DNA of 16,970 bases from a virus (taxonomy: Duplodnaviria; Heunggongvirae; Uroviricota; Caudoviricetes): IMG/VR virus record IMGVR_UViG_2925903241_000002, one strand, 5' to 3'. Position numbers and translations under genes: made by a program. This document shows positions 1 to 16,970 of this stretch, piece by piece (positions within the stretch are counted from its first letter, which is position 1; the number at the start of each line of letters is the position of its first letter). The notes beneath the pieces are model-generated. The model was given only the letters and a program-made list of their open reading frames with translations, searched no databases and was not told where the DNA came from.

Positions 1-1263
1 ATGAAACTCAACGCTCGCCAGATAGAGACCGCAAAGCCGAAAGAGAAAGCTTATAAAATGGCTGATGGAGGCGGTTTGTATCTTGAGGTCTCCCCTAAAG
101 GTTCTAAGTACTGGCGCATGAAATATCGCCGCCCCTCTGACAAAAAGGAAGATCGACTCGCTTTTGGTGTATACCCGACGGTCACTTTGGCTGAAGCGCG
201 GGGTAAGCGCGATGCAGCAAAGAAATTGTTGTCTCAGGGTATTGACCCCAAAGCTGAGCAAAAGGGGGCACAAGCTGAAATTGAGGGGGCATATTTATTT
301 GAAACTATCGCAAGGCAATGGCACGCAAGTAACCTTACTTGGAGCGAAGATCATAGCCGTCGTGTTCTGCTGACACTTGAGCAGTATATTTTCCCCTCGA
401 TAGGTCAAATCGATGCCAGAACGTTGAGAACCAGCCAGCTTCTCAATCCAATCAAAGCTGTCGATACGGCGGGTAAACATGATGTCGCGCAGCGACTGAT
501 GCAGCGCGTAACCGCAATTATGCGTTTTGGTGTGCAGAATGACCTCCTTGAATCAAATCCTGCATGCGATATGGCTGGAGCGCTTTTAAGCGTTAAAGCA
601 ACCCACCACCCAGCACTACCCCCAAAAAGAATCCCTGAGCTTCTTGAAAGACTATCACGCTATAAAGGGCGACTAATGACACGGCTTGCCGTTGAATTAA
701 CGCTACTCACATTTATACGTTCAAGTGAGATGCGTTTTGCTCGCTGGAGTGAGGTTAACTTTGAACGAAGCGAGTGGACAATACCCGGAATTCGTAAGCC
801 TATTCCCGGCGTAAAACACTCTGAGCGTGGGATGAAGATGAAAACTGAACATATTGTTCCGCTTAGCAAACAAGCATTTGATATTTTTAAACGTTTACAT
901 GCCTTGAGTGGTAAAGGTGAGGTTATATTTCCCAGCGATCATGATCCTAAAAAAGTAATGAGTGAAAATACAGTAAATAACGCCTTACGTGTAATGGGAT
1001 ATGATACGAAAACTGAAGTATGTGGTCATGGGTTTAGAACTATGGCGCGTGGTGCGCTAAGTGAGTCGAAACTATGGAATGATGATGCCATTGAAAGACA
1101 GTTAAGCCACGTTGAACGAAAAAATGTGAAAGGTTCATATATGCATACTTCCGAATATCTTGAAGAAAGAAGATTAATGCTGCAGTGGTGGGCTGATTAT
1201 ATTGATGCTAATAAGAATGGATCTGTCACACCATATGATTTTGCGCGTATGCATGGAAAATAA
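1..1263 (+). CDS. int: P4-type tyrosine integrase (site-specific recombinase); window starts at its ATG, so the attachment site, presumably a tRNA/tmRNA 3' end, lies upstream and out of view
   Basis: 420-aa ORF with the typical P4-integrase N-terminus (AKPKEKAYKMADGGGLYLEVSPKGSKYWRMKYR) and a catalytic-domain-like C-terminus (HGFRTMARGALSE ... SYMHTSEY). Family assignment is from motif recognition, not a search. Confidence 0.9.
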   Translation: MKLNARQIETAKPKEKAYKMADGGGLYLEVSPKGSKYWRMKYRRPSDKKEDRLAFGVYPTVTLAEARGKRDAAKKLLSQGIDPKAEQKGAQAEIEGAYLFETIARQWHASNLTWSEDHSRRVLLTLEQYIFPSIGQIDARTLRTSQLLNPIKAVDTAGKHDVAQRLMQRVTAIMRFGVQNDLLESNPACDMAGALLSVKATHHPALPPKRIPELLERLSRYKGRLMTRLAVELTLLTFIRSSEMRFARWSEVNFERSEWTIPGIRKPIPGVKHSERGMKMKTEHIVPLSKQAFDIFKRLHALSGKGEVIFPSDHDPKKVMSENTVNNALRVMGYDTKTEVCGHGFRTMARGALSESKLWNDDAIERQLSHVERKNVKGSYMHTSEYLEERRLMLQWWADYIDANKNGSVTPYDFARMHGK

Positions 1264-1292
1264 TTACCATTGGGGGCTGCGGAGAGATTTAA

Positions 1293-1931
1293 ATGAATAA
1301 TACTCAATTTGATAATAATTTGTTTTATTTTAATAGGTTAACTTACATAACGCCACACGAAGTGGCGCTTGCTATGAATGGTTTTGACTATGATACCGAA
1401 AATGATGAATTGACTGAGGTTCAATTAAAAGAGGTTATTAGATTAAGAAAGGCAATAACCAGAAATCTACAATTAATTAATGAATATAAAAACGTATCCG
1501 CCACGCAAAAAGTGGAGGCGAACTTATTATTAACTGCCGCTTATATCTTTCAGAGGGAAGGTATTGTACCTGTGGAGATTAAGGAGAGAATTGAGAACGC
1601 ATTACGACAACAGGTAAAAAATAAAGATTGGAGTGATATTCTAATGACGTTAGGAGGAAGTGAATTATATGAAGTTGGTAAAAAATTAAGGAGTAATGGT
1701 AGAGGGCAGTACAGAAAAGATGATGAGGATAATTATAGTTGTAAATTAATTTATTTACTAATTGAATTGCTTAAGAGACATGGAAAGGTAAGTTATAGCG
1801 ATAATAGTGTTATATATAATGATATTGTTTCTTTTTGTAATGAGAATGAGATTCTAATGAAAGGGGTTAAAAAAGCTACGTTTTATAAGAAAATAAAGCT
1901 TGGGAAAGACATTATAAAATACGGAGAGTAA
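1293..1931 (+). CDS. hypothetical protein; AT-rich orphan cargo gene between int and alpA
   Basis: 212-aa ORF with GGAGAG 6 nt upstream of the ATG. Composition is visibly AT-rich against the GC-rich backbone; the protein is charged and helix-prone, with no motif I recognise. Confidence 0.6.
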   Translation: MNNTQFDNNLFYFNRLTYITPHEVALAMNGFDYDTENDELTEVQLKEVIRLRKAITRNLQLINEYKNVSATQKVEANLLLTAAYIFQREGIVPVEIKERIENALRQQVKNKDWSDILMTLGGSELYEVGKKLRSNGRGQYRKDDEDNYSCKLIYLLIELLKRHGKVSYSDNSVIYNDIVSFCNENEILMKGVKKATFYKKIKLGKDIIKYGE

Positions 1932-1996
1932 ATTTATTAATTTTCTGGCTATCTCTCAATAGAAGGGCCACAAGAGGCTCTAACGGGCTATAGGGG

Positions 1997-2044
1997 GTAA
2001 TACGATGTAATATGGTGTAATACTGTGCTAATTCCTAGGTAATA
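1997..2044. repeat. helically phased GTAATA(C/T) direct repeats, candidate protein-binding array
   Basis: GTAATA at 1997, 2007, 2017 and 2039, with CTAATT at 2028, giving a 10-11 bp period in an AT-rich intergenic region upstream of alpA. Confidence 0.4.
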
Positions 2045-2308
2045 TGAATCGTTAAAATGCAATAATACCTTTTGACATATGATTTTTTGATTTTCCATCC
2101 TATCCATATGAATTCTATTGATTTTGTTTTTTTTTGTGCATTTCCTTCTCTCCGTGTTCTTTCATATGAATATTACTTCTTTTTTCAGTGGAGATTATTG
2201 TTTTTCAATAGAATCAATATTTGTCTTAATAGATTCCATTATCACTAGAATCACTTTTTCCCAGTGTTTAAAGTCACCGTGAACTTAAGTAGAACACGGA
2301 GTAACAAG

Positions 2309-2539
2309 ATGGAATATGCAAACAGCTTTTCAGATAATCAGACTCTTATCTCAGCAAAAGAGGTCTTAAGACGCGTTCAGCGTAGCAAGGCATGGCTTTA
2401 CAAACAGCTTGCAAACAATACATTTCCCCGTCCGGTGAAAATAGGAACTCGTGCAATTTCATTTGTTGAAAGCGAAGTGGATCACTGGATTCAAGAGCAA
2501 ATATATGCCTCTCGTGGTGAGCGATATGAAAATCACTAA
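2309..2539 (+). CDS. alpA: AlpA-family (excisionase-like, MerR-type HTH) transcriptional regulator
   Basis: GGAG 8 nt upstream of the ATG at 2309. The sequence LISAKEVLRRVQRSKAWLYKQLANNTFPRPVKIGTRAISFVESEVDHWI fits the AlpA pattern (FP+PVK+G.R...W.E+..W). The upstream ATG at 2264 lacks an RBS. Confidence 0.8.
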   Translation: MEYANSFSDNQTLISAKEVLRRVQRSKAWLYKQLANNTFPRPVKIGTRAISFVESEVDHWIQEQIYASRGERYENH

Positions 2540-2544
2540 TAAAA

Positions 2545-2572
2545 AAGCCCGACATAATGAATTTGTGGGCTT
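2545..2572. terminator. hairpin between the convergent alpA and RHH genes; probably a terminator for the minus-strand gene, possibly bidirectional
   Basis: Stem AAGCCCGACA / TGTGGGCTT with one mismatch. An A-run precedes it on the plus strand, which is a U-run after the stem on the minus strand. Confidence 0.4.
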
Positions 2573-2635
2573 AAAAATATTGTCGCTTACTGAAATTAAC
2601 ATGGAAACAGAGAGAACGTCTGTTGGCTTCTCTAT

Positions 2636-2821
2636 TCAACTACCTTGCTCTGGCTTATTTTTCCTGCGCTGTCGGCGTTTAATCTCGCCTTTTACAGCCG
2701 TAACAATGAATTGCGCTTTCGTTTCTCCATCTTCAAGGTTGCTTTCTAATTCTGCAACTACATCATGTGGGAAACGAGCATTAAGTTGCTGCGACTTGTT
2801 GTTAGTTGAACTCGTTGCCAT
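2636..2821 (-). CDS. small ribbon-helix-helix-like (Arc/CopG-type) DNA-binding protein, putative regulator
   Basis: 61-aa ORF with a strong SD (GAGGAG on the minus strand, about 8 nt before the ATG at 2821). The layout QLNARFPHDVV (beta strand), AELESNL (helix), KAQFIVTAVKGEIKRRQRR (basic helix) fits the RHH fold. Fold assignment is inference. Confidence 0.55.
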   Translation of the reverse strand: MATSSTNNKSQQLNARFPHDVVAELESNLEDGETKAQFIVTAVKGEIKRRQRRKNKPEQGS

Positions 2822-2840
2822 TACTGGATCTCCTCGCGTT

Positions 2841-2933
2841 AGGTGCGATTCAGTATATGCAAAAAAAATGATAATAAAAAGCTTGAAGTGCGATTCACTT
2901 AAGGGTAGCTTTAAAATTAAAGGTGCGATTCAC
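2841..2933. repeat. three direct repeats of (A/G)GTGCGATTCA(C/G) followed by an A-rich tract; candidate operator or origin-like site
   Basis: Copies at 2841-2853, 2886-2898 and 2921-2933, with a degenerate fourth (GTGCGAAGCC) at 2941-2950. They lie just upstream of the RHH gene start, between the divergent RHH gene and the primase operon. Confidence 0.5.
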
Positions 2934-3008
2934 CTTGTGAGTGCGAAGCCCGACAGTGCAGCAACACTAACCGGGCTTCTGACCAATCCGCTAAATGAGG
3001 TAACGAAG

Positions 3009-3185
3009 ATGGCTAAACAGAAGTGTACCTGGTTATTTGCGGCGATCAACCGCAGTCAACGCAATACCCGTCCTGTGATGTTAAGGATCACCGCAGATAA
3101 CGAGCGGTCAGCGCGGCGCAGACTTGCCCCGGACTATGTACTGAGCTTTGCCGGGCGCATTCCCTGCGGAGGTGAACATGCGTAA
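3009..3185 (+). CDS. possible small hypothetical protein (59 aa), first gene of the primase operon
   Basis: ATG at 3009 with GAGG about 9 nt upstream; its stop overlaps the next gene's start. It is embedded in a longer 244-aa ORF that is probably spurious upstream, so this call is weak. Confidence 0.3.
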   Translation: MAKQKCTWLFAAINRSQRNTRPVMLRITADNERSARRRLAPDYVLSFAGRIPCGGEHA

Positions 3186-3537
3186 TTATCCGCACCCCGG
3201 CGAACGCTGGCAGCATGAACGTGGCTGGACGGTCACGATTATCCGATTAATAGAAGCCTCGCCCTCTGTGGCGCTGGTTAATCCTGAATTCAGCTGTGAA
3301 GTGCTGATACGTCATGACAGCGACAACCAGCTTTCTTCCTGCCCTCTGGCATGGTTTGAACAGCGGTATACGCGCCTGTTTGATGTACCGCTCTTGAAGC
3401 CTGCACCAGCTCCTGCTGGCGGTAGTGGTTCCGGCCCGCTGACACTGCATCCGTCTGTGCTATTTATCCGCTGGCGGGAGCGTAGCATACGGCGTTCTGC
3501 TGAGCCTGACGACGGTCACTATTCAAAGTTTCTCTGA
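3178..3537 (+). CDS. hypothetical protein
   Basis: ATG at 3178 with GGAGG 6-9 nt upstream; GC-rich like the primase operon. The N-terminal 70 aa look globular and the C-terminus is low complexity, so the true stop may be misjudged. Confidence 0.55.
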   Translation: MRNYPHPGERWQHERGWTVTIIRLIEASPSVALVNPEFSCEVLIRHDSDNQLSSCPLAWFEQRYTRLFDVPLLKPAPAPAGGSGSGPLTLHPSVLFIRWRERSIRRSAEPDDGHYSKFL

Positions 3538-3568
3538 CAAAATACCGCTGAAAACGGAGTAATCCACG

Positions 3569-3853
3569 ATGAATATTTCAAACGGGCACAACGGTGCTCA
3601 GGGCCACACTTTGCCTGAAAAACACAATACCGGTGCTTTTGCCTATGGGTTGTCAGAGGACAGTTTCGGAAAACTGACCCGCGCAAGAAATGCCTGCGAC
3701 ATGCTCCAGCTTCTCTTTTCTGAATACCCGTCTCAGGCCGGAGCACTGGACGCTGGCTGTGCGCATGGTGTCGCCGCGCTGATGGAGTACCTGCTGGCAG
3801 ATTTGACGGATATTGCACACAGCTGCGCACTGATTGAAGGAGGTGCCAGATGA
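3569..3853 (+). CDS. hypothetical protein
   Basis: ACGGAG 9 nt upstream of the ATG; 94 aa; its stop overlaps the next start (ATGA). Confidence 0.6.
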   Translation: MNISNGHNGAQGHTLPEKHNTGAFAYGLSEDSFGKLTRARNACDMLQLLFSEYPSQAGALDAGCAHGVAALMEYLLADLTDIAHSCALIEGGAR

Positions 3854-4233
3854 ACCAGCCGCAGGTTTCCATTTTCCCGGCAGAAATGACCACCGCGCTT
3901 TACCGGCGGGCTATTGCTTCAGCATGGCGGCAGAAAATGCTGAACGAAACTGGCAGTGATCAGTATGGTCCGCACAGCCTGACGGTGGAGCGTATTGAAA
4001 TGGCCATTGCGCTGCATATCGAGTGCGTACTGATTAACGAGTACGGCGAAGCACAGGGCGCCGCTGCCGCGCTGGCACTGCTGACTGACATGCTGGAGCC
4101 GTCACTGCTGACCGCGCCGCCGGTACTGACCGCGCGCGGCTGTGAAGTGATGGCGGAGATGTACCGCACGCTTCCGGCGGCCTTTGATGACTTCTGCAGT
4201 ACCGGTGTGACGTTGTATCAGGGGGAAGTATGA
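3850..4233 (+). CDS. hypothetical protein
   Basis: GAAGGAGG upstream; 127 aa; translationally coupled to both neighbours through ATGA overlaps at 3850 and 4230. Confidence 0.6.
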   Translation: MNQPQVSIFPAEMTTALYRRAIASAWRQKMLNETGSDQYGPHSLTVERIEMAIALHIECVLINEYGEAQGAAAALALLTDMLEPSLLTAPPVLTARGCEVMAEMYRTLPAAFDDFCSTGVTLYQGEV

Positions 4234-6902
4234 CAATACAGACGGTTACGCAGATTTCAGCCGCCGCACGGGGGAAATGGCCCGTTATTCTCCAGATGCT
4301 GCGTATTGATGTACCTGAAAACGGCAGGCACGGTCCCTGCCCGAAATGTGGGGGCAAGGATCGTTTTCGCCTTGATGACCTTGACGGGCGCGGGACGTGG
4401 ATCTGCAGCCAGTGTGGCAATGGTGACGGTCTGGATCTGGTTAAGCTCGTAACCGGTTACAGCGTCAGAAAGGCTGCGCAGGAGGTGGCGCAGGTGCTTA
4501 ATGTGCCGGATGTGCAGGAACTGCCTGTTAAGCCTGCCAGAAAAAAAGCCCCTAAACGCGACATGGGTCTTACCGTGGCGGCGCTGATGAAAGAGAGCCA
4601 CACGGGAGAAAGCGCCTATCTGACAGGAAAAGGGTTCGCCGGATACCCGGCCTCTCTGACCGGAAGCGTGCAGCATATCAGCGGTAAGGATTTTCCTGCC
4701 GGTTCCCTGCTGTTACCACTCACGACCAACACCGGAGCCGTGACTGGTGCACAGCTTATCGCCCCGACGGGTGAAAAAAGCATACTGCCCGGCAGCACGA
4801 TGAAAGGCGCGTTTGTGTCGCTCAGCCCGTTACCGTCTGAACCACCGGTACAGGTGGTGATTACCGAAGGTTACGCTACGGCGCTGACGGTAAGTCAGCT
4901 CACTGCCGGATGCGTAGTGGCTGCCATATCTGCGGGCAACCTGCCCAATGTGGCGCAGTCGCTGCGGGCACGCTGGCCTGAGGTAAAAATTATCATCGCC
5001 GGTGATAACGATTTTCAGGACGGGGGTGAGAATCCCGGCAGAGCCTTTGCTGAACGGGCGGCAAAAGCTGTTGGCGGCTGGATGACGCTGCCACCGGGAG
5101 AGATTAAGGCCGACTGGAATGACTTCCATCGGGAGCACGGTATTACCCGCGCCCGTGAAGCCTTTCGTAACGGTCTGGTGCTGTGCGGGGAGGGCCGCAC
5201 GCAACTGCCGCACGGGTTCCGTCTTACCCAGGAATATCTCTGGTATGAAAAGCAGGTACAGCGCAACGGTGAGACGGAGATCCAGAACGTCAAAATATGC
5301 AGCCCGCTGCGCGTGACGGCAATCACCTGCGATGCCGATGGCGGTAACTTCGGACGACTGCTGGAATGGGAAGATACGTGGGGTGAGTGTCGCCGCTGGG
5401 CGATGCCGATGGAAATGCTGAGCGGCAGTGGTGAGGAACTGCGCCGGGTATTGCTGGTTAACGGGCTGTCTTATATCAGCACCACCGGTGAGGCACGCGC
5501 ACGCCTGATGGAATATATCTCACTGTGTAAACCGGAACGCCGCGTGACCTGCGTCAGTCGTACTGGCTGGCATGGTCAGGTTTACGTCCTGCAGGATGAG
5601 GTCAGCGGTGAAGGTGCAGAGGGTGTCATTCTCCAGACCACTTCCGTGCAGGGGCGTGATTTCCGCGTGTCGGGCACAACAGAGGAATGGCGGGAGCATG
5701 TATCCCGCTACTGTACCGGCAACTCCCGCGTGGCATTTGCTGTCAGCCTGGCCTTTGCTGCACCACTGTTACGGCTGGTTGGTATGGACGGCGGCGGCTA
5801 CCACCTCAAAGGGGAATCGACAGACGGTAAGACCACCACCATGAAAGCGGCAACCTCCGTCTGCGGCGGGCCTGACTACTGGCAGACATGGCGGGCCACC
5901 GGCAACGCGCTGGAGGGATGCGCCAGCCGCCGCAACGATGCCGCCATGATGCTTGATGAGATCCGGGAAGTTGACGGACGCGAGGCAGGCAATATCGCCT
6001 ACATGCTGGCAAACGGTCAGGGCAAGGGCCGTGCCGGTACGGACGGTGAGCTGCGTACCCGTAAGCATTGGCGCCTGTTGTTCTTTTCAACTGGCGAGTT
6101 GTCTCTGACCGAACATGCGGCAAAGGCCGGTGAGCGTACTTTTGCCGGGATGGAAGTCAGGATGATCCAGATCCCCAGCGATTCCGGGAAGTTTGGCGTT
6201 TTTGAGGAGCTGCACGGCTTCGACAGCGGCAAGGCTCTGGCAGAGCATCTTGAATGGGCCACGTCCTGCTACTACGGTTCGCCGTTCCGGGAGTGGCTGA
6301 AAGCACTGACCGCTGATCTTAACGGACTAACGGCACAGGCAAAATCGCTGATGAAGGAATATGCTGCCGCCCTGACTCCGAAAGATGCAGGCAATCAGGT
6401 GGGCCGGGCTGTGAACCGCTTTGCTCTGGTGGCGATGGCAGGTGAACTGGCAACCCGTCTGGGTATCACCGGCTGGCCTGAGGGTGAAGCACTGCGGGCA
6501 ACCCGCGTCTGCCTGAACGCATGGCTGAAAGATCGCGGGCACACCGCCAATCAGGAAGATATCGCCGCACTGGAGCAGGTTCGCAGTTTCTTTACCGCGA
6601 ATCAGTACAGCCGCTTTGCAGACTGGTATGACGAGCGCAACCGCCCCGGCAATATGGTGGGCTGGCGCAGGGTGGAGAAAGGCAGTACCGCGCAGGGCAC
6701 GGAAGCTGTCACTACGTTCTATGTCATGCCGTCCGGCTGGAAAGAAATCTGCAGGGGATTTGACCCGCGCAAGGTGGCGCGTCTGTGCGCAGATCGTGGA
6801 TACCTGCTGCCCTCCACTGATGGCAAACTCCAGACAACCATTCGCCCGCCAGAGATGAATCCCCGCAGGCTCTATGTCTTCAACAGCGAGGTGCCGGGTT
6901 AA
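4230..6902 (+). CDS. P4 alpha-like primase-helicase (zinc-binding domain, Toprim, P-loop NTPase)
   Basis: 890 aa. N-terminal CPKCGG...CSQCGNGDG zinc ribbon; Toprim-like EGYATALT ... IIAGDNDF; Walker A GESTDGKTT; GGGGAAG RBS. Confidence 0.9.
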   Translation: MTIQTVTQISAAARGKWPVILQMLRIDVPENGRHGPCPKCGGKDRFRLDDLDGRGTWICSQCGNGDGLDLVKLVTGYSVRKAAQEVAQVLNVPDVQELPVKPARKKAPKRDMGLTVAALMKESHTGESAYLTGKGFAGYPASLTGSVQHISGKDFPAGSLLLPLTTNTGAVTGAQLIAPTGEKSILPGSTMKGAFVSLSPLPSEPPVQVVITEGYATALTVSQLTAGCVVAAISAGNLPNVAQSLRARWPEVKIIIAGDNDFQDGGENPGRAFAERAAKAVGGWMTLPPGEIKADWNDFHREHGITRAREAFRNGLVLCGEGRTQLPHGFRLTQEYLWYEKQVQRNGETEIQNVKICSPLRVTAITCDADGGNFGRLLEWEDTWGECRRWAMPMEMLSGSGEELRRVLLVNGLSYISTTGEARARLMEYISLCKPERRVTCVSRTGWHGQVYVLQDEVSGEGAEGVILQTTSVQGRDFRVSGTTEEWREHVSRYCTGNSRVAFAVSLAFAAPLLRLVGMDGGGYHLKGESTDGKTTTMKAATSVCGGPDYWQTWRATGNALEGCASRRNDAAMMLDEIREVDGREAGNIAYMLANGQGKGRAGTDGELRTRKHWRLLFFSTGELSLTEHAAKAGERTFAGMEVRMIQIPSDSGKFGVFEELHGFDSGKALAEHLEWATSCYYGSPFREWLKALTADLNGLTAQAKSLMKEYAAALTPKDAGNQVGRAVNRFALVAMAGELATRLGITGWPEGEALRATRVCLNAWLKDRGHTANQEDIAALEQVRSFFTANQYSRFADWYDERNRPGNMVGWRRVEKGSTAQGTEAVTTFYVMPSGWKEICRGFDPRKVARLCADRGYLLPSTDGKLQTTIRPPEMNPRRLYVFNSEVPG

Positions 6903-6936
6903 GGCTTTGCGTGAGTCTTATTTATTAAGGGTAACA

Positions 6937-7124
6937 GGTGAAACAGGTGGAACAACCGTATTTTACAGGGCTGAACCTGTTCCACCTTCTGAAATAGTGA
7001 GGTGGAACAGATGTAACGCCAGCCAATCCGCTGTTCCACCTTGTTACCCGCGATGTTCCACCGGTGCAGTGTATATAAATGCCTTATAAAACAAAGCTGT
7101 AACACATGTTTCACCTGTTCCACC
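6937..7124. repeat. iteron cluster: eight copies of TGTTCCACC or its variant TGTTTCACC in both orientations; candidate alpha-binding cis replication region (crr/ori-like)
   Basis: Forward copies at 6978-6986, 7032-7040, 7054-7062, 7107-7115 (variant) and 7116-7124; reverse copies at 6937-6945 (variant), 6946-6954 and 7001-7009. The cluster lies directly downstream of the primase gene. P4 ori and crr carry the similar octamer TGTTCACC, as I recall it. Confidence 0.6.
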
Positions 7125-7212
7125 GCATCAGGGACATAAAGCAGACTGAAACAGAGGGCATTTTTATCTGGCTGGCTTTCATAGCCACGTCTGAATAACC
7201 GCAAGCGTCCGT

Positions 7213-7230
7213 TGTGCCAGCCACCACACA
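7213..7230 (+). promoter_or_regulatory. TGT-N12-ACA dyad upstream of the sid operon; candidate Ogr/Delta activator site of a P2/P4-type late promoter
   Basis: TGT at 7213-7215 and ACA at 7228-7230 with a 12-nt spacer, centred about 80 bp before the sid ATG. A second dyad at 7251-7268 sits too close to the start codon to be the activator site. Confidence 0.4.
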
Positions 7231-7302
7231 CTGAGCACCGATAGTGTGCTTGTGTCAGCCACGACACAATTGACGTAACGAACCAACCCGACAGGAGAAG
7301 TC

Positions 7303-8046
7303 ATGAACAACACCGCAGTGAATAACAACCTTTCCACTTTTCCGGCTGTAACGCAGCGGGCACTGGAAACCATGAACACAGCCAGAAACGCATGGCTTGA
7401 AGCACGTCGTCAGCAGAAAGCGGCAGCGGATAATATTGCGACAATCCGCCAGCGTCGCGCTGAAATGGAAGCCACGACGAACACACTGAATGAGGAGTGG
7501 CGCACGCTGTTTCGTGAAAGTCAGGGCGTGGTCTCAAAGGAAATGAAAAAACTGCGCACGGAAATTGCGCTGGGACGAGAAACGCTTGAGGATTTTGATG
7601 AGCTGCTGGCGGCTCAGGAAAGCGAAAATGCACTTTTGCCGCAGAAAGCTGCAGAATTAGCCGGAAAGTATATCCACGCGCATAACATTCTTGTGGATAT
7701 TCGCGCAAAACAAATCTGGGAGGATTTTATGCAGTCGCATGGAAAAGCGCTTATTCAGACGCTGAGCCTGCTTAAATCCACAATGGGCCGGGAAGCCAGT
7801 GCCGTTGTGGGTGTGGTGAATTCAGTTAATGACCCGGACACAGTGCTGAAAGACTTTATTCATAAACATATCACCAGACCGGCTCTGGCTAACGATGCGA
7901 TGCCTGAGCAGGACCCGGTGTTTAAACTGGCGGGAGTTGCCCCGGATTATGCGGCGCGTCTGGATTTCAGTAATCAACTCTCTCCGGCAGCTATGCATAA
8001 AATTAAGGTTCGTCAGGAACTTGCTGAGAAGGAGAAAGCAGTATGA
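7303..8046 (+). CDS. sid: Sid-like capsid size determination (external scaffold) protein
   Basis: 247 aa, helical and Ala/Glu-rich. Position after alpha and before psu matches P4. The segment EEWRTLFRESQGVVSKEMKKLR resembles my recollection of P4 Sid. Confidence 0.7.
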   Translation: MNNTAVNNNLSTFPAVTQRALETMNTARNAWLEARRQQKAAADNIATIRQRRAEMEATTNTLNEEWRTLFRESQGVVSKEMKKLRTEIALGRETLEDFDELLAAQESENALLPQKAAELAGKYIHAHNILVDIRAKQIWEDFMQSHGKALIQTLSLLKSTMGREASAVVGVVNSVNDPDTVLKDFIHKHITRPALANDAMPEQDPVFKLAGVAPDYAARLDFSNQLSPAAMHKIKVRQELAEKEKAV

Positions 8047-8594
8047 CGGCCCGAGGCACGCCTGACCAGGCACTTACCAGTTTTCGGAATGCCCGTATTC
8101 TGTGGGCCGGACATAATGAGAGCCGAAAAGCCGTTGAACAACAGATAACATCTCTCCTCGCTGCCACAGAAAAACCAGCAGATTATGCCCGACAGCTCGA
8201 ATTACTGCGGGAACGTCTGGATGTGCTGAAATGGCAAATTAACTGTGCTGCGCGCGAATGCATTTACTCGCAGCATTTACTGATGGAGGCCTGCACAGAA
8301 GCCGCTCTCAGCAATTTTATGCAGGCGAATGGGGCAGCCCTGACATCTGCACTGGCTCCGTTCCTGAAGGGGCGCGGAGGGGTTGACGTTGCGTCCCGTA
8401 TATTACGCAGTGCTCTGGTTCGCCAGCTGGCAATAACACCGCCTGAAATTGCCGGGGATTATCGTGAGATCCTGGATGAATCCGGTTTGATGCCTGACCC
8501 CGGGATGATTCGTGATTGCCAGGGTTCTTACACCCCGGCACAACATCTGCGTTTTCAGCAACGCCTGAATGACATTAACGATATACAGGAGTGA
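8043..8594 (+). CDS. psu: Psu-like polarity suppression / capsid decoration protein
   Basis: 183 aa with an ATGA overlap to sid. The segments LKWQINCAARECIYSQHLL, FMQANGAALTSALAPFL and YTPAQHLRFQQRLN resemble recalled P4 Psu motifs. Confidence 0.7.
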   Translation: MTARGTPDQALTSFRNARILWAGHNESRKAVEQQITSLLAATEKPADYARQLELLRERLDVLKWQINCAARECIYSQHLLMEACTEAALSNFMQANGAALTSALAPFLKGRGGVDVASRILRSALVRQLAITPPEIAGDYREILDESGLMPDPGMIRDCQGSYTPAQHLRFQQRLNDINDIQE

Positions 8595-8599
8595 TATTA

Positions 8600-8872
8600 A
8601 TGGCACTTAAATGTCCGGAATGCGGTACAGTTGCACACGCCAGAACAGCAGCCTATGAAGCTCCGTCAGTTAAACGCTCGTGGTATCAGTGCCAGAATCT
8701 GGAATGTTCCTGCACATTTACGGCACTGGAGAGTGTGGATAAGATAATCATGAAACCCCGGCGCAATGAACAGCTATCAGACAAAGCACAATCCCCGGAA
8801 AAACAACAGAAAACGCTCAATCGCTATGGCTCCGCGTCAAAACTGTCAAGCCGTCAGCAGATTCCTGTCTGA
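8600..8872 (+). CDS. Ogr/Delta-family zinc-finger late transcription activator
   Basis: C-x2-C-x22-C-x4-C (CPECG ... CQNLECSC) at the N-terminus; GGAG 8 nt before the ATG at 8600. The in-frame GTG at 8591 is less likely. Confidence 0.85.
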   Translation: MALKCPECGTVAHARTAAYEAPSVKRSWYQCQNLECSCTFTALESVDKIIMKPRRNEQLSDKAQSPEKQQKTLNRYGSASKLSSRQQIPV

Positions 8873-8892
8873 TTAGAAAGAACGCCCACGTA

Positions 8893-8919
8893 ATCCCGGT
8901 CCAGTACCGGGATTTTTTA
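8893..8919 (+). terminator. rho-independent terminator of the sid-psu-ogr late operon
   Basis: Stem ATCCCGGT / ACCGGGAT (8 bp), loop CCAGT, followed by TTTTTT. Confidence 0.7.
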
Positions 8920-9244
8920 CCCCCTTTTCCTGGCTGACATGAGAGCGCATGAGTGCATGTCTATGGCGCATGAAAACGCATGAGTCTTATGCACCATTTT
9001 TGACGAGAAAACCCTTGTGTGCTGGCTTCTGAGACGATTAATGAGGTGCATGAAAACCAGTCTGTTAAGCGAAGCGGGCAGGCGTGCGGGGCTGCCCGCA
9101 CTAACGGTGATAATTGTGATGTTGCGATATCAAGAGAGATATAAGAATGCTGTATTCAATAAGGTATTGCTTTCAATTGTTAGATTTATTTTTGTTTAAA
9201 TGTCAATGGTTTAGGTGGTTGCTGGCAGCCAGTACGCTTACTTA

Positions 9245-9272
9245 TTGAAAATCTCGCATCTTTTGCTATCCT
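9245..9272 (+). promoter_or_regulatory. candidate sigma70 promoter for the retron ncRNA/operon
   Basis: TTGAAA at 9245-9250, 16-nt spacer, TATCCT at 9267-9272, directly upstream of the structured ncRNA region. Confidence 0.35.
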
Positions 9273-9274
9273 AA

Positions 9275-9450
9275 CCCTACCTTTACGCGCGGGATAACAG
9301 GTTTATCCTTGTCGGGCGTTTCGCCAGACACTAATTTATTGTGGACATTTAGGGTTGCGCTTTAGCACTTTCAGCAAGATCCTTCATGCCACTGCGTTCC
9401 ATTCAGGATCTTGCTGAAAGTCTAAAGCGCATCCTTTAGGTAAAGGGGTC
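9275..9450 (+). ncRNA. retron msr-msd-like non-coding RNA (ends approximate)
   Basis: Two short hairpins (GGATAA-CAGGT-TTATCC at 9292-9308; GGCG-TTT-CGCC at 9315-9325), then a long imperfect inverted repeat: GCGCTTTAGCACTTTCAGCAAGATCC at 9357-9382 pairing with GGATCTTGCTGAAAGTCTAAAGCGC at 9406-9430 (one mismatch, about 22-nt loop). CCTTTAC at 9279 and GTAAAGG at 9440 are candidate a1/a2. It sits immediately upstream of an effector-RT gene pair. Confidence 0.6.
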
Positions 9451-9499
9451 GAAGGTGGCTGGTTAGCCACCTTTTCTTTTGGAGTAGGGGGTCACAAGG

Positions 9500-10486
9500 G
9501 TGAGTGATTCTGCATATATGAATGCATTACAAGAGCAGTTTGGAGATTTGAAATATTCAAATTTCACTGTTCAGTTCATGCCTCCTATTATTTTTGTTTG
9601 TGGTGGGCCGATAAATTCCACTCCAATGAGTGTACGAGACCACATATTTACTTATGTAGCAGGCCACAAACCTGAATTGTCAGATTCTCTTATTTTAGCT
9701 GAGAACTTCCATGACTACTTCAGAGAGGGGGCATATTCAGATCTAATGAGCTTTGAAGATGATATTGCAAATATTTCAACATTAGTTGTTATCTGTTTAG
9801 AAAGTGCAGGTTCGTTAGTTGAGCTTGGATTATTTGTTAATAGGAAGTCTCTAGCTCAAAAATTGCATGTAGTCGCACCATTTGAGGAGATTGAGGGAAA
9901 TGAACGAAAAAATATTCCTGCTAGATCTTCTTTTATATATTTAGGCCCTTTGGAGTATCTTAAAAAAATAGATGAGGCCTCAGTATCAGTTTATCCATGG
10001 CCAAAATCGGATCGTATGAAATATGATGAGGTTGAGCTTATCTACCATGATATTCATTCTAGATTAAAACGTGTAAAAAAAACGGAGCGATATAACCCTG
10101 AAAATACTGGGCACCTAGCTATATTGATTTACGAAATAATCCTTTTATCAGAACCAATCAAGAAAAGCGAAATAGAGTGGGCACTATACTGTATGGATAT
10201 AGATGTGCCACAAAAAATAATAACTCGTTTACTTTATTTGCTTGAAAAGATGAAATTAACCTCATCATTATCTTACAGTGGTACAGACTACTTCTATTCC
10301 CGAGGGCATAGAGAGAGTAAACTTAAATTTGGTATCAGTGCTAGTGGTAAAATAAAGGATTCTATGAATATTAAGGTTGCAATCCGACAATCTTACTTAA
10401 GTATGGATGCTAAAGATATGGACGAGACTGCAAAAAAAAGGAAAAATGCTCTAAATCAAATCAATATCGTGCGTGGAGGGGCTTAG
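9500..10486 (+). CDS. retron effector candidate: nucleoside 2-deoxyribosyltransferase-like N-terminal domain with a possible winged-helix C-terminal domain
   Basis: 328 aa, AT-rich. PPIIFVCGGP and VVICLESAGSLVELGLF resemble the NDT/Rossmann-like fold with a conserved Glu. The start is uncertain: GTG at 9500 or ATG at 9518, neither with a strong SD. The stop lies 1 nt before the RT start. Confidence 0.65.
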   Translation: MSDSAYMNALQEQFGDLKYSNFTVQFMPPIIFVCGGPINSTPMSVRDHIFTYVAGHKPELSDSLILAENFHDYFREGAYSDLMSFEDDIANISTLVVICLESAGSLVELGLFVNRKSLAQKLHVVAPFEEIEGNERKNIPARSSFIYLGPLEYLKKIDEASVSVYPWPKSDRMKYDEVELIYHDIHSRLKRVKKTERYNPENTGHLAILIYEIILLSEPIKKSEIEWALYCMDIDVPQKIITRLLYLLEKMKLTSSLSYSGTDYFYSRGHRESKLKFGISASGKIKDSMNIKVAIRQSYLSMDAKDMDETAKKRKNALNQINIVRGGA

Positions 10487-10487
10487 A

Positions 10488-11420
10488 ATGGAGTTGCTAA
10501 GTTATATTTCAAAAGGTCTTTTTCTTAGCGAAGAAGAGGCTAAAAGGTATATTGTTACTATTCCACGCAGATATAAAATTTATCCTATCGCCAAAAGAAA
10601 TGGTAATGGATATAGATTAATTGCACAACCAGCTAGGCAAGTTAAAGCCTTACAGAAGGTAGTAATCAATCATATGTTGGCTAATTTGAAAGTTCATGAA
10701 AATGCTTTCGCTTATGAAGCCGATAAAAGTATTAGATCTAATGCGTTAATGCATTGTAATAATGATTATTTGCTTAAAATGGATTTTAAAAACTTTTTTA
10801 TGAGTATCAAACCCCATAATCTTTTATCTGTCTTAAAAGATTATGGCGTTGAACTAACTGATACTGATATCTTTGTTCTTAAAAATCTTTTCTTCTGGAA
10901 GTTAAGAAGAAATAGCCCGTTACGCCTAAGTGTTGGAGCACCTTCTTCTCCCATTATTTCAAATACAGTAATGTATTTCTTCGATGAGGAAATATCGAAA
11001 AGATGCAAGGATTTGGGTATTACCTACTCAAGGTATGCTGATGATCTTACGTTTAGCACCAAAGTCAAAGGAGCTTTATTTGATGTTCCTAAGTTAGTAA
11101 GGGAAGTTCTTAACGTAGTAAATCTTAGGAATATTAAAATAAACCATGAGAAAACAGTTTTTACCTCAAGGAAGTTTAATAGACATGTAACTGGTGTAAC
11201 TATTACGACTGATGGTTATTTGTCTTTAGGTCGTGATAGAAAGCGTCTTTTAAGAAGTAAAATACATTATTATGTGTGTGGGGTTTTATCTGAGAAAGAA
11301 ATTCTAACCCTTAAAGGAGAATTAGGCTATGCGAAATTTATTGAACATAAATTCTTTGCCTCCATGATTAAGAAATATGGGGATGATGTAATCAGCGAAA
11401 TTTCAAAATATGAAATTTAA
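10488..11420 (+). CDS. retron-type reverse transcriptase
   Basis: GGAGG 8 nt upstream of the ATG at 10488. RT motifs are present: IYPIAKRNGNGYRLIAQP (motifs 1-2), LKMDFKNFFMSI (3), SVGAPSSPIISN (4), YSRYADDLTFS (5, YADD). NRHVTGVTI carries the retron-characteristic VTG motif, and about 310 aa is typical retron RT size. Confidence 0.85.
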   Translation: MELLSYISKGLFLSEEEAKRYIVTIPRRYKIYPIAKRNGNGYRLIAQPARQVKALQKVVINHMLANLKVHENAFAYEADKSIRSNALMHCNNDYLLKMDFKNFFMSIKPHNLLSVLKDYGVELTDTDIFVLKNLFFWKLRRNSPLRLSVGAPSSPIISNTVMYFFDEEISKRCKDLGITYSRYADDLTFSTKVKGALFDVPKLVREVLNVVNLRNIKINHEKTVFTSRKFNRHVTGVTITTDGYLSLGRDRKRLLRSKIHYYVCGVLSEKEILTLKGELGYAKFIEHKFFASMIKKYGDDVISEISKYEI

Positions 11421-11874: not shown

Positions 11875-12976
11875 ATGGCTCTGAGTGATGTGAAGGTTCG
11901 TTCGGCTAAGCCTGAAGCAAAAGCCTATAAGCTGACCGACGGTGAAGGCATGGTTTTGCTGGTTCACCCTAACGGCTCCAAATACTGGCGGCTACGTTAT
12001 CGCTTTGGCGGTAAAGAGAAGATGCTGGCATTGGGGAAATACCCCGAAGTGTCGTTGGCGGATGCCAGGGCACGCCGGGATGAGGCTCGTAAGCTTTTAG
12101 CTAATGGTGTCGATCCCAGTGAAAACAAGAAAGCTGTTAAGGTAGAACAGGAACAAGAGGCGATAACGTTGAAGTAGTCGCCAGAGACTGGCACGCCAGC
12201 AATCAGAAGTGGTCGGCATCGCATAGCGCTCGTGTTTTGAAAAGTCTGGAGGATAATCTCTTTACTGCTATCGGTAAGCGGAACATTGCGGAACTGAAGA
12301 CGCGGGATCTTCTTGTACCCATTAAAGCAGTCGAGTCATCCGGGCGGCTCGAAGTTGCCGCCCGTTTACAGCAGCGTACTACCGCGATTATGCGCTTTGC
12401 CGTTCAGAGCGGCTTAATCGACTACAACCCCGCGCAAGAGATTGCAGGTGCGGTTGCTACGGCGAAAAGACAGCACCGTGCAGCTCTTGAACTGAACCGT
12501 ATACCTGAATTACTTCATCGCATAGATCACTATTCTGGCAGACCGTTAACTCGGCTGGCGGTTGAACTCACTTTATTGGTTTTCATCCGTTCGAGCGAGC
12601 TGCATTTTGCCCGCTGGTCAGAAGTAGATTTTGAAACGGCTATGTGGACAATCCCAGGTGAGCGTGAGCAACTGGAAGGAGTCAAGCATTCTCAGCGTGG
12701 CTCGAAGATGCGGACACCACACCTTGTGCCTTTGTCGCGGCAGGCCCTAAGTATTTTGGAAAAGATCAAAAGCATGAGCGGAAATTGAGAGCTGATTTTT
12801 GTGGGCGATCACGATCCACGTAAGCCGATGAGTGAGAATACGGTGAACAAGGCTTTGCGCGTAATGGGGTATGACACGAAGGTCGAGGTTTGTGGGCATG
12901 GCTTCAGGACGATGGCTTGTAGTTCGTTGATTGAGTCGGGATTATGGTCGAGGGATGCGGTAGAGCGGCAGATGAG
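11875..12976 (+). pseudogene. second P4-type integrase, inactivated by a frameshift, a nonsense codon and 3' truncation by the IS element
   Basis: AAGGA RBS and ATG at 11875. The translation parallels the first integrase across three frames: a frame break near 12160-12177, an in-frame TGA at 12786-12788 where the first integrase has Gly, and an end at the IS inverted repeat at 12977. Confidence 0.8.
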
Positions 12977-13018
12977 TGAACCGCCCCGGGTTTCCTGGAG
13001 AGTGTTTTATCTGTGAAC

Positions 13019-15761
<2,743 letters not shown>

Positions 15762-16175
15762 CGTAAGTAAAATCAGCCACCCACAGCTGGTCAGGTCGTT
15801 CTGCCACGAACTGACGGTTTACGCGGTCGCCTGCGGCAACGGCTTTCCGGCTGATGGTCGTACGGACCTTTTTACCCCGGAGAACACCGGCAAGTCCCAT
15901 AACCGCCATGAGACGTGCCACAGTGCATCTGGCCACTCTGATACCTTCCCGTAACAACTGACGCCAGACTTTACGCACACCGTATACCTTGTGATTTTCA
16001 TCGTATACGCGCTGTATCTCTTTCTTCAGCCAGTCATCGCGCTGCGCACGGGCACTGCGTTTATCCGGATGATGTCGCTGTTGCTGACAGTGGTAATACG
16101 TTGACGGGGCAATATGCAGTTCGCTGCATAGCGGTCCGACCCCGTACTGCTCACGCAGCTTATCCAGCAGTGGCA

Positions 16176-16179
<4 letters not shown>
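15762..16179 (-). pseudogene. IS3-family transposase OrfB, 5' exon (interrupted by the group II intron after ...LWVADFTY)
   Basis: The reading frame runs into intron sequence (GVPGVQ ...) at 15761; the intron begins GTGTG on the minus strand. Confidence 0.8.

Positions 16180-16970
<791 letters not shown>

Follow-up and report, generated by a model that had tools for sequence, protein, structure and literature searches.

A vegetative (plasmid) replication origin of a P4-like satellite probably lies at positions 6928-7124 of the stretch analysed here, a 16,970-nt piece of tailed-phage DNA (IMG/VR record IMGVR_UViG_2925903241_000002), hereafter the window. The sequence of the window is identical to E. 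coli chromosomes, in which the element is an island at tRNA-Leu, and it is a P4-like satellite prophage with a defence hotspot. The putative origin consists of eight strong and about four degenerate copies of a 9-mer iteron, GGTG(G/A)AACA, which would be read by the alpha-like initiator protein encoded directly upstream. From its layout and neighbours, the site appears to be a single origin of the kind used by Staphylococcus aureus pathogenicity islands (SaPIs) and by PICIs, the phage-inducible chromosomal islands, placed inside a P4-like satellite. We found no description of this origin or of a DUF927-type alpha in P4-like satellites; the design is a recombination of the P4 ori-Psid arrangement and the Rep-ori module of SaPIbov1 and the PICIs.

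The iteron cluster

Exact copies of TGTTCCACC, or GGTGGAACA on the opposite strand, were found six times in the window, where 0.09 were expected, and none of the shuffled sequences reached six (0/200). A search with one mismatch added TGTTTCACC, the C-to-T variant of TGTTCCACC at position 5, at 6937(-) and 7107(+), giving eight copies with limits at 6937-7124, three on one strand and five on the other. A first-pass annotation, made from the sequence alone, had described eight identical iterons in both orientations in non-coding DNA; the count and the limits stood, while strictly six copies are exact and two are position-5 variants. The exhaustive count also bore out that the motif is confined to this cluster, apart from a single isolated one-mismatch site at 12141. 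Pattern GGTGNAACA returned the same 8 sites in the window and nothing more; its one stray copy in 24.7 kb of the matching chromosome of E. coli lay outside the element. Of 67 exact 9-mer copies in 483 kb of loci with relatives of the initiator, 66 lay in clusters right after alpha homologues and 1 was isolated. Looser patterns revealed about four degenerate copies abutting the strong ones (6928-6936, 7010-7018, 7041-7049 and 7098-7106), the leftmost of which contains a nearly invariant GGGTAACA across relatives. All copies are listed in Table 1.

The abutting sets of 2-3 iterons at the two ends of the cluster face each other, with mixed orientations between them, and form an imperfect inverted repeat of 18-39 nt. 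Same-orientation iterons were spaced 53-55 nt apart, or about five helical turns. The GC minimum (27.5%, 7070-7109) fell between iteron 6 and iterons 7-8. The first strong iteron begins 35 nt past the stop codon of the alpha-like gene (26 nt with the degenerate copies included), and the last ends 179 nt ahead of the sid ATG.

RefSeq annotates no coding sequence across the repeat stretch, and homologues carry indels there that are not multiples of three; the stretch is therefore non-coding, as had been supposed. Two mechanically called open reading frames overlapping the repeats, 6874-7089(+) and 6899-7267(-), were rejected as genes on the same grounds. No Rfam family matched the repeat site at gathering thresholds, and since the Rfam matches lay only elsewhere (a group II intron and an IS3 ALIL pseudoknot), an RNA element is without support. 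Scans of 6800-7400 for sigma-70 promoters and intrinsic terminators returned nothing.

Domains and predicted fold of the initiator

The Pfam domains of the alpha-like protein were a zinc ribbon (Zn_Ribbon_Prim, aa 32-68), a TOPRIM domain (Toprim_3, aa 209-304) and a DUF927 helicase (aa 330-612), followed by a helical region and a predicted C-terminal winged helix. When compared with P4 alpha by BLASTP, only aa 5-316 aligned (P4 aa 4-311, 38% identity, E 1e-48). P4 alpha is composed of Zn_Ribbon_Prim, Toprim, D5_N, DUF5906 and Pox_D5, and matches PDB 1KA8 (an origin-binding winged helix) and SaPI5 PriRep5 (superfamily 3, SF3). By sequence comparison, the D5_N/SF3 helicase and the Pox_D5 winged helix (1KA8) are absent from the alpha-like initiator, and a profile of its last 250 residues showed no similarity to the P4 alpha C-terminus (hhalign probability 0.3%). 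The PDB sequence matches of the alpha-like protein were 8tch (SaPIbov1 Rep) and 5dgk (SCCmec Cch).

In an AlphaFold model of aa 641-890 (32 sequences, mean predicted local distance difference test score 82.9), the last unit had the order beta-beta-helix-helix-beta-beta, its two helices spanning aa 834-840 and 846-855. Foldseek with this model returned 8tch and 5dgk at probability 1.00, and 1KA8 was not among the matches listed by either of two structure searches. As modelled, the C-terminus forms a SaPIbov1 Rep/Cch/TcpK-type winged helix. SaPI Reps recognise the origin directly 3' of their own gene through the C-terminal domain, and Cch, a DUF927 protein, is related to SaPIbov1 Rep (PMC7581432); in the SaPI Reps it is the C-terminal winged-helix domain that reads the iterons (PMC9371898). 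The winged-helix domain at aa ~796-890 is the candidate reader of the iterons described here. The supposition that they are bound by alpha as in P4 needs amending: homology to P4 alpha is limited to the zinc ribbon/TOPRIM portion of the protein (aa 5-316, 38%), and the predicted DNA-binding part is of the SaPIbov1 Rep/Cch type and not that of P4.

Conservation and concerted motif switching in relatives

A scan with one genome per species gave 39 loci encoding relatives of the initiator at 36-100% identity, of which 21, spanning Enterobacterales to Betaproteobacteria and including metagenome-assembled genomes (MAGs), were examined in detail. An iteron cluster was present ~30-420 nt past the initiator stop codon in every one (21/21), in agreement with the tie between iterons and upstream primase-helicase proposed in the first-pass annotation. 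No second cluster occurred within 5 kb on either side of alpha in these loci, and P4 octamers were found downstream of alpha in none of the relatives.

With positions counted from the stop codon, the Enterobacterales layouts were superimposable from E. coli to Proteus and Xenorhabdus: 2-3 abutting forward copies (~+26 to +50), one reverse copy (~+77 to +84), 1-2 forward copies (~+99 to +116), two reverse copies (~+127 to +160) and, after an A+T-rich gap present in all Enterobacterales relatives, a last set of 2-3 abutting reverse copies (~+190 to +220). A further locus retrieved later (L046) had the same layout.

The motif itself changed by lineage in all copies at once, even between initiators ~97% identical. 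Iterons of class GGTGGAACA were found in E. coli, Shigella, Citrobacter, Enterobacter, Pseudocitrobacter and one Pantoea stewartii element; class GGTGTAACA in Pantoea, Yersinia, one Xenorhabdus and Proteus terrae; nTGGTAACA in Xenorhabdus, Morganella and Pantoea leporis; and nGGGTAACA in Proteus vulgaris. The metagenome-assembled Gamma- and Betaproteobacteria had GGGGTAACA, GGTGTTACA, TTGGGGACA, GGGGAACC, GGCGTTACAG and GCTTGTCCC. Between the E. coli and the Pantoea/Yersinia classes, position 5 was altered in all eight iterons. An alignment of seven sequences (E. coli, Pantoea, Yersinia) had 57/64 invariant iteron columns (89%) and 57/150 invariant spacer columns (38%; Fisher p = 1e-12). Invariant iterons between diverged spacers therefore indicate selection on the repeats with a concerted change in specificity, and the co-evolved specificity suggested earlier is upheld by an unchanged layout in which all copies of the motif switch together from one lineage to another. 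Chance or a recent, functionless local duplication is refuted as the source of the repeats by the shuffles, the layout shared from E. coli to Proteus and Xenorhabdus, and the invariant iteron columns beside diverged spacers.

Two relatives that lack the zinc-ribbon/TOPRIM part and retain DUF927 and the C-terminal domain still had the iteron cluster. The repeats therefore follow the helicase/C-terminal module, to which specificity would belong, and not the primase. The cluster also followed the DUF927 gene in MAG relatives with other downstream genes.

Co-resident elements had different iteron classes in Pantoea stewartii ATCC 8199 (L004/L024) and in P. leporis (L010/L025), which fits diversification that keeps replicons private, or selection against initiator sharing. 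In contrast, the intergenic origin region, found in 330/5,426 complete E. coli genomes, was carried in two copies by 2 of them. One MAG with three DUF927-type elements (L032/L037/L039) had a different iteron class in each. In L046 (Logan SRR19018936), the product of 3001-4152 (383 aa) comprises only the C-terminal initiator part; an AlpA-like gene immediately precedes its gene, and a full nTGGTAACA cluster comes after it. The explanation is truncation or decay of the element, or else an artefact of gene calling.

Comparison with P4

In the annotated P4 genome, type 1 repeats (GGTGAACA/TGTTCACC) occur six times in ori (9310-9413) and ten times in crr (4291-4590, downstream of alpha), and ori1 ends 170 nt ahead of sid. 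The sequence between the repeats of the window and sid aligned with the P4 Psid region, and the aligned parts took in two TGT-N12-ACA boxes at a distance of 37-38 nt, so the cluster corresponds in position to P4 ori1 and not only to crr. The two elements share the int, cnr-like, alpha-like, sid, psu and delta genes, the defence hotspot, integration at tRNA-Leu and a homologous N-terminal zinc-ribbon/TOPRIM primase. In both, iterons of mixed orientation with tandem sets lie ~170-180 nt upstream of sid and are followed by the two boxes. They differ in that the P4 iteron is the 8-mer TGTTCACC and the iteron here a 9-mer with one extra central base; tandem iterons abut at 9 bp here versus 10-11 bp in P4; there is one cluster here versus ori and crr 4.5-5 kb apart; and DUF927 with another winged helix takes the place of the D5_N/DUF5906/Pox_D5 (1KA8) helicase and origin-binding parts. 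The alpha operon is also co-directional with sid here, unlike in P4, and the repeats are for that reason both downstream of alpha and upstream of sid.

The first-pass likening of the repeat to the P4 ori/crr octamer was sound in that the cores are near-equal (GGTGAACA versus GGTG(G/A)AACA) but for the extra base. GGTGAACA itself was absent from 6900-7140 and had two isolated copies in the window, at 3171 and 12842. Judged from the sequences, the likeness is most likely coincidental, because the motif family also occurs in relatives without a P4-type primase and outside Enterobacterales. It also fits poorly with binding domains that are unrelated in sequence and between which no likeness of fold was detected. 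A shared constraint is conceivable. We consider two further readings unlikely: in one, a P4-type primase acquired a SaPIbov1-Rep-type helicase and winged-helix module, which later adapted to an origin inherited from a P4-like ancestor; in the other, a shared component (primase domain, Cnr homologue or host factor) recognises the common core as well, giving the iterons a second reader.

Position downstream of alpha is also where crr lies in P4, which needs both ori and crr, and the A+T-rich stretch of the cluster is off-centre. The repeats could on these grounds be an auxiliary alpha site, an enhancer or looping partner like crr, with initiation elsewhere at a different or unrecognisable sequence. 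This has a low probability, since a second, crr-like cluster was found neither in the window (exact, one mismatch, GGTGNAACA, G[GT][GT]NAACA and 6-mer cores) nor within 5 kb around alpha in relatives, in line with the single iteron site noted at first. Moreover, its arrangement of iterons and A+T-rich DNA is that of an origin, the cluster in the window lies at the position of P4 ori1 relative to Psid, and Reps with this helicase type use one gene-adjacent origin (PMC7581432, PMC9371898).

Comparison with SaPI, PICI and plasmid origins

SaPI origins comprise 6-12 iterons around an A+T-rich region, and the SaPI Reps are self-loading helicases (PMC9371898). The satellite resembles this system in its DUF927/SaPIbov1-Rep-type helicase with a C-terminal winged helix and in having 8 strong and ~4 degenerate iterons directly 3' of the initiator gene. 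It differs in its Gram-negative host and P4-like element, in a fused DnaG/TOPRIM-type primase where SaPI primases are of AEP type (PMC7581432), and in iterons of 9 bp rather than 5-6 bp. Identity between the window protein and SaPIbov1 Rep/Cch in the C-terminal region was only ~8-15%.

Another parallel is the pri-rep-ori module of the E. coli PICI EcCICFT073, in which a fused primase-initiator is followed by an origin with two iteron sets flanking an A+T-rich region, and which drives plasmid replication (PMC6092414). The likeness, taken from the published description, is that of an E. coli satellite with a fused primase-initiator and then an origin; PICIs differ in lacking sid, psu and delta and in using other helpers. 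A search for EcCICFT073 Pri-Rep in two 40-50 kb stretches of the CFT073 chromosome returned only a lambdoid prophage and core genes.

Iteron plasmids of the pSC101, P1, R6K and RK2 type likewise have repeated initiator sites beside an A+T-rich unwinding element and an adjacent initiator gene, and iteron divergence is a plausible basis of their incompatibility groups. Their iterons, however, are direct repeats of 17-22 bp, and the RepA-type winged-helix proteins that bind them, as dimers or monomers, recruit host DnaA and DnaB, whereas here the repeats are 9 bp long and of mixed orientation, the initiator is itself helicase and primase, and 6900-7300 has no DnaA box.

Proposed mechanism

In the mechanism that we propose, the alpha-like protein would bind the 9-mers through its C-terminal winged helix and assemble on the cluster as a self-loading hexamer of the DUF927 type (SaPIbov1 Rep/Cch, MCM-like), or as two hexamers. 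The helicase would then open the A+T-rich stretch at 7063-7106, where replication could start, translocate, and prime with its own zinc-ribbon/TOPRIM primase. One cluster would suffice, with no second site of the crr type. Substitutions in the recognition helix and wing would go along with changes in the iterons, giving each lineage a private origin, and the retained cnr homologue may modulate alpha binding, as is reported for Cnr in P4.

Several points weigh against this reading. No DnaA box (TTATCCACA, up to 1 mismatch) or other host-factor site was recognised in 6900-7300, where such a site would have given positive support, and the number of DnaA-box matches over the whole window, six, does not exceed that expected by chance. 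P4 replication is DnaA-independent, in agreement with the lack of a box. P4 itself needs two cis sites, and a second site of unrecognisable sequence is conceivable here. The A+T-rich stretch does not lie at the centre of the cluster: 6-9 copies precede it and 2-3 follow. The copies adjoining it (7032 and 7054 on one side, 7107 and 7116 on the other) share one orientation, unlike the opposed-iteron rule of SaPIs (PMC9371898); only the outermost sets (6928-6954 versus 7098-7124) are opposed. The N-terminal 200 residues also differ between near-identical initiators with different iterons. A full-text literature search returned no paper joining DUF927 with P4-like elements, and among the matches listed for the 9-mer none concerned replication origins.

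Candidate specificity residues

Two pairs of near-identical initiators with different iterons were compared. The pair L011/L012 (GGTGTAACA versus nTGGTAACA) had 33 differing columns, 6 in the helicase core (aa 320-795), 7 in the last 95 and the remainder in the first ~320 residues. The pair L013/L015 (GGTGTAACA versus nGGGTAACA) had 22, of which 1 was in aa 320-795, 5 in the last 95 and the remainder again in the first ~320 residues. C-terminal domain positions 807, 846 and 887 changed in both pairs. Position 846 is the start of the predicted recognition helix (GFD-x-RKVxRL). Position 807 is probably just variable, because it also differs between L012 and L014, which belong to one iteron class and are identical over aa 846-890.

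Residue 866 (DG-K/R) was Lys in all GGTG(G/T)AACA and GGGTAACA elements and Arg in all six nTGGTAACA elements. L046, checked afterwards, had nTGGTAACA iterons with Ser846 and Arg866, as predicted; with this locus counted, residue 846 was Ser in 6/7 nTGGTAACA elements. Between the E. coli class (G at position 5) and the Pantoea class (T), the recognition helix was identical, and the C-terminal differences clustered in the wing at 860-863 (LPST versus MASV/MASA/LASA), with 870 and 878 also differing. The changes that accompany a motif switch thus fall in the predicted recognition helix and wing, a correlation that points to these elements as possible sites of residue-base contacts. Because the N-terminal 200 residues vary too, the assignment of specificity to the winged helix is one of correlation and analogy.

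Gene context of the cluster

The order of genes in 1-11420 was int, early genes, cnr-like, alpha, ori, sid, psu, delta, a cos-like sequence and the hotspot, with the early and sid operons co-directional. This differs from the usual P4-like order of int, hotspot, cos, psu, delta and sid, then alpA, epsilon and, last, alpha (PMC8628076). Coordinates are given in Table 1.

Table 1. Features of the putative origin and its surroundings, in window positions.
Feature	Position	Strand	Sequence, basis or remark
Integrase	1-1263
DUF5375 gene	3850-4233	+	Overlaps alpha start codon; Pfam DUF5375 E 8e-14; 40% identity to P4 ORF106
Alpha-like initiator, 890 aa	4230-6902	+	RefSeq 'TOPRIM and DUF927'; Pfam, BLASTP, PDB sequence matches
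Predicted winged-helix coding region	6615-6899	+	aa ~796-890; recognition helix 846-855, wing 856-884
Degenerate iteron	6928-6936	-	+ strand aGGGTAACA; first of three abutting left-hand copies
Iteron 1, variant TGTTTCACC	6937-6945	-	+ strand GGTGAAACA; one-mismatch search
Iteron 2, TGTTCCACC	6946-6954	-	+ strand GGTGGAACA; exact search
Iteron 3, TGTTCCACC	6978-6986	+	Exact search
Iteron 4	7001-7009	-	+ strand GGTGGAACA; exact search
Degenerate iteron	7010-7018	-	+ strand GATGTAACG; relatives have GGTGGAACG or GGTGTAACG
Iteron 5, TGTTCCACC	7032-7040	+	Exact search
Degenerate iteron, TTGTTACCC	7041-7049	+	Loose patterns, alignment with relatives
Iteron 6, TGTTCCACC	7054-7062	+	Exact search
A+T-rich spacer, proposed unwinding element	7063-7106		Between iteron 6 and iterons 7-8
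Degenerate copy, TGTAACACA	7098-7106		3' end of A+T-rich spacer
Iteron 7, variant TGTTTCACC	7107-7115	+	One-mismatch search
Iteron 8, TGTTCCACC	7116-7124	+	Exact search
Distal TGT-N12-ACA box	7213-7230	+	Direct repeat; aligns with P4 Psid box at ~9494
Proximal TGT-N12-ACA box	7251-7268	+	Direct repeat, 38 nt from distal box; P4 alignment
sid-like gene	7303-8046	+	First of sid-psu-delta late operon; RefSeq, Pfam
psu	8043-8594
ogr/delta gene	8591-8872

Between the integrase and alpha lie genes for a helix-turn-helix (HTH) regulator, an Icd-like protein and a DUF5375 protein. The last is a homologue of P4 ORF106, which we take to be, probably, the copy-number regulator cnr. Cnr of P4 acts through the C-terminal DNA-binding domain of alpha, and the homologue is kept here although that domain has been replaced by an unrelated one. 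In 90% of P4-like elements, the interval from epsilon to alpha holds a gene family that contains cnr (PMC8628076).

This setting would also suit an operator for alpha or a Cnr-like protein that governs read-through into sid-psu-delta, the sid promoter or, by array pairing, copy number: the early operon lies on one side of the cluster and the late promoter on the other, no terminator was predicted after alpha, and the retained cnr homologue immediately precedes alpha. Plasmid iteron arrays indeed serve both initiation and copy control. A mainly regulatory function is nevertheless improbable: the Delta boxes of Psid are separate and further downstream, and the cluster still follows the DUF927 gene in the MAG relatives with other downstream genes, and so belongs with the initiator rather than with sid. 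A regulatory role would probably add to origin function, not replace it.

The two TGT-N12-ACA boxes are likely the Ogr/Delta activator sites of the sid late promoter, judging by their alignment with P4, where the Delta sites at Psid lie near -55 and -18. The distal box marks the right-hand limit of the putative origin and is outside the origin proper. Pairs of iterons were rejected as Delta/Ogr sites; none has the N12 spacing, and in the closest TGT...ACA pair, 6978/7009, the spacing is 26 nt.

Binding of the repeats by another protein of the element or its helper (HTH/AlpA-like, Delta/Ogr, integrase/excisionase or terminase), for transcription, recombination or packaging, is very unlikely. 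Every repeat does contain TGT or ACA, like Delta half-sites, but the true Delta boxes are at 7213-7268 and no pair of repeats has the TGT-N12-ACA spacing. The cos-like sequence is ~2 kb off at ~9068-9100, and attL is at the tRNA-Leu end of the element. Motif class, moreover, tracks the substitutions in the alpha winged helix, and the repeats persist in elements without P4 late genes. An origin read by the alpha-like protein is the reading that we prefer.

Other observations

A T-run followed by CTGGC-N-GGC was observed at 7160-7176 (TTTTTATCTGGCTGGC), 40-50 nt past the last iteron. It is kept in all Enterobacterales relatives (L006-L025 and L046), resembles TTTTCCTGGCTTGCC at P4 9460-9473, and in Xenorhabdus, Proteus and Morganella lies ~25-35 nt ahead of a delta-like gene. 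It did not match sigma-54 spacing, and no terminator was predicted there.

The sid-like protein had a weak Pfam Psu match (E 2e-9), in line with the RefSeq annotation of P4 Sid; the RefSeq name of its product, 'septation initiation protein', looks like a mis-expansion of Sid (capsid size determination). Downstream of delta, five GCATGA/GCATG copies occur in ~120 nt (8935-9060), and at ~9068-9100 a G+C-rich GGCAGGCGTGCGGGGCTGCCCGCAC is loosely like the P4/P2 cos end GGCGAGGCGGGGAAAGCAC. Together they may form a packaging site with terminase-binding repeats.

The satellite hotspot (9500-11420) encodes a retron St85-family effector and a reverse transcriptase. A long inverted repeat at 9330-9440 (AGCACTTTCAGCAAGATCC ... 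GGATCTTGCTGAAAGT), upstream of the retron genes, may be msr/msd; Rfam at gathering thresholds gave nothing in this region. Past the satellite, 11875-16970 is a decayed second island. Its integrase is frameshifted, its IS3 fragments include an ALIL pseudoknot (16105-16221), and its group II intron (Rfam, 13492-13578) comes with an ltrA (13582-15105) that is frameshifted too.

Implications

The replication modules of P4-like satellites are mosaic, with at least two initiator designs, which have their counterparts in the two helicase types found among SaPI Reps: P4 alpha pairs with SaPI5 PriRep5 (SF3), and the initiator described here with SaPIbov1 Rep. The DUF927-alpha lineage, which is not rare in E. 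coli, appears to do with one origin and no crr. Annotators would gain a defined origin for common defence-carrying islands of E. coli and Enterobacterales. The relatives are a natural specificity series in which the candidate determinants are narrowed to residues 846, 850 and 860-870; the series bears on how the winged helix of a self-loading helicase reads its origin and on how co-resident satellites avoid initiator sharing, and it may offer a compact, possibly orthogonal set of initiator/origin pairs.

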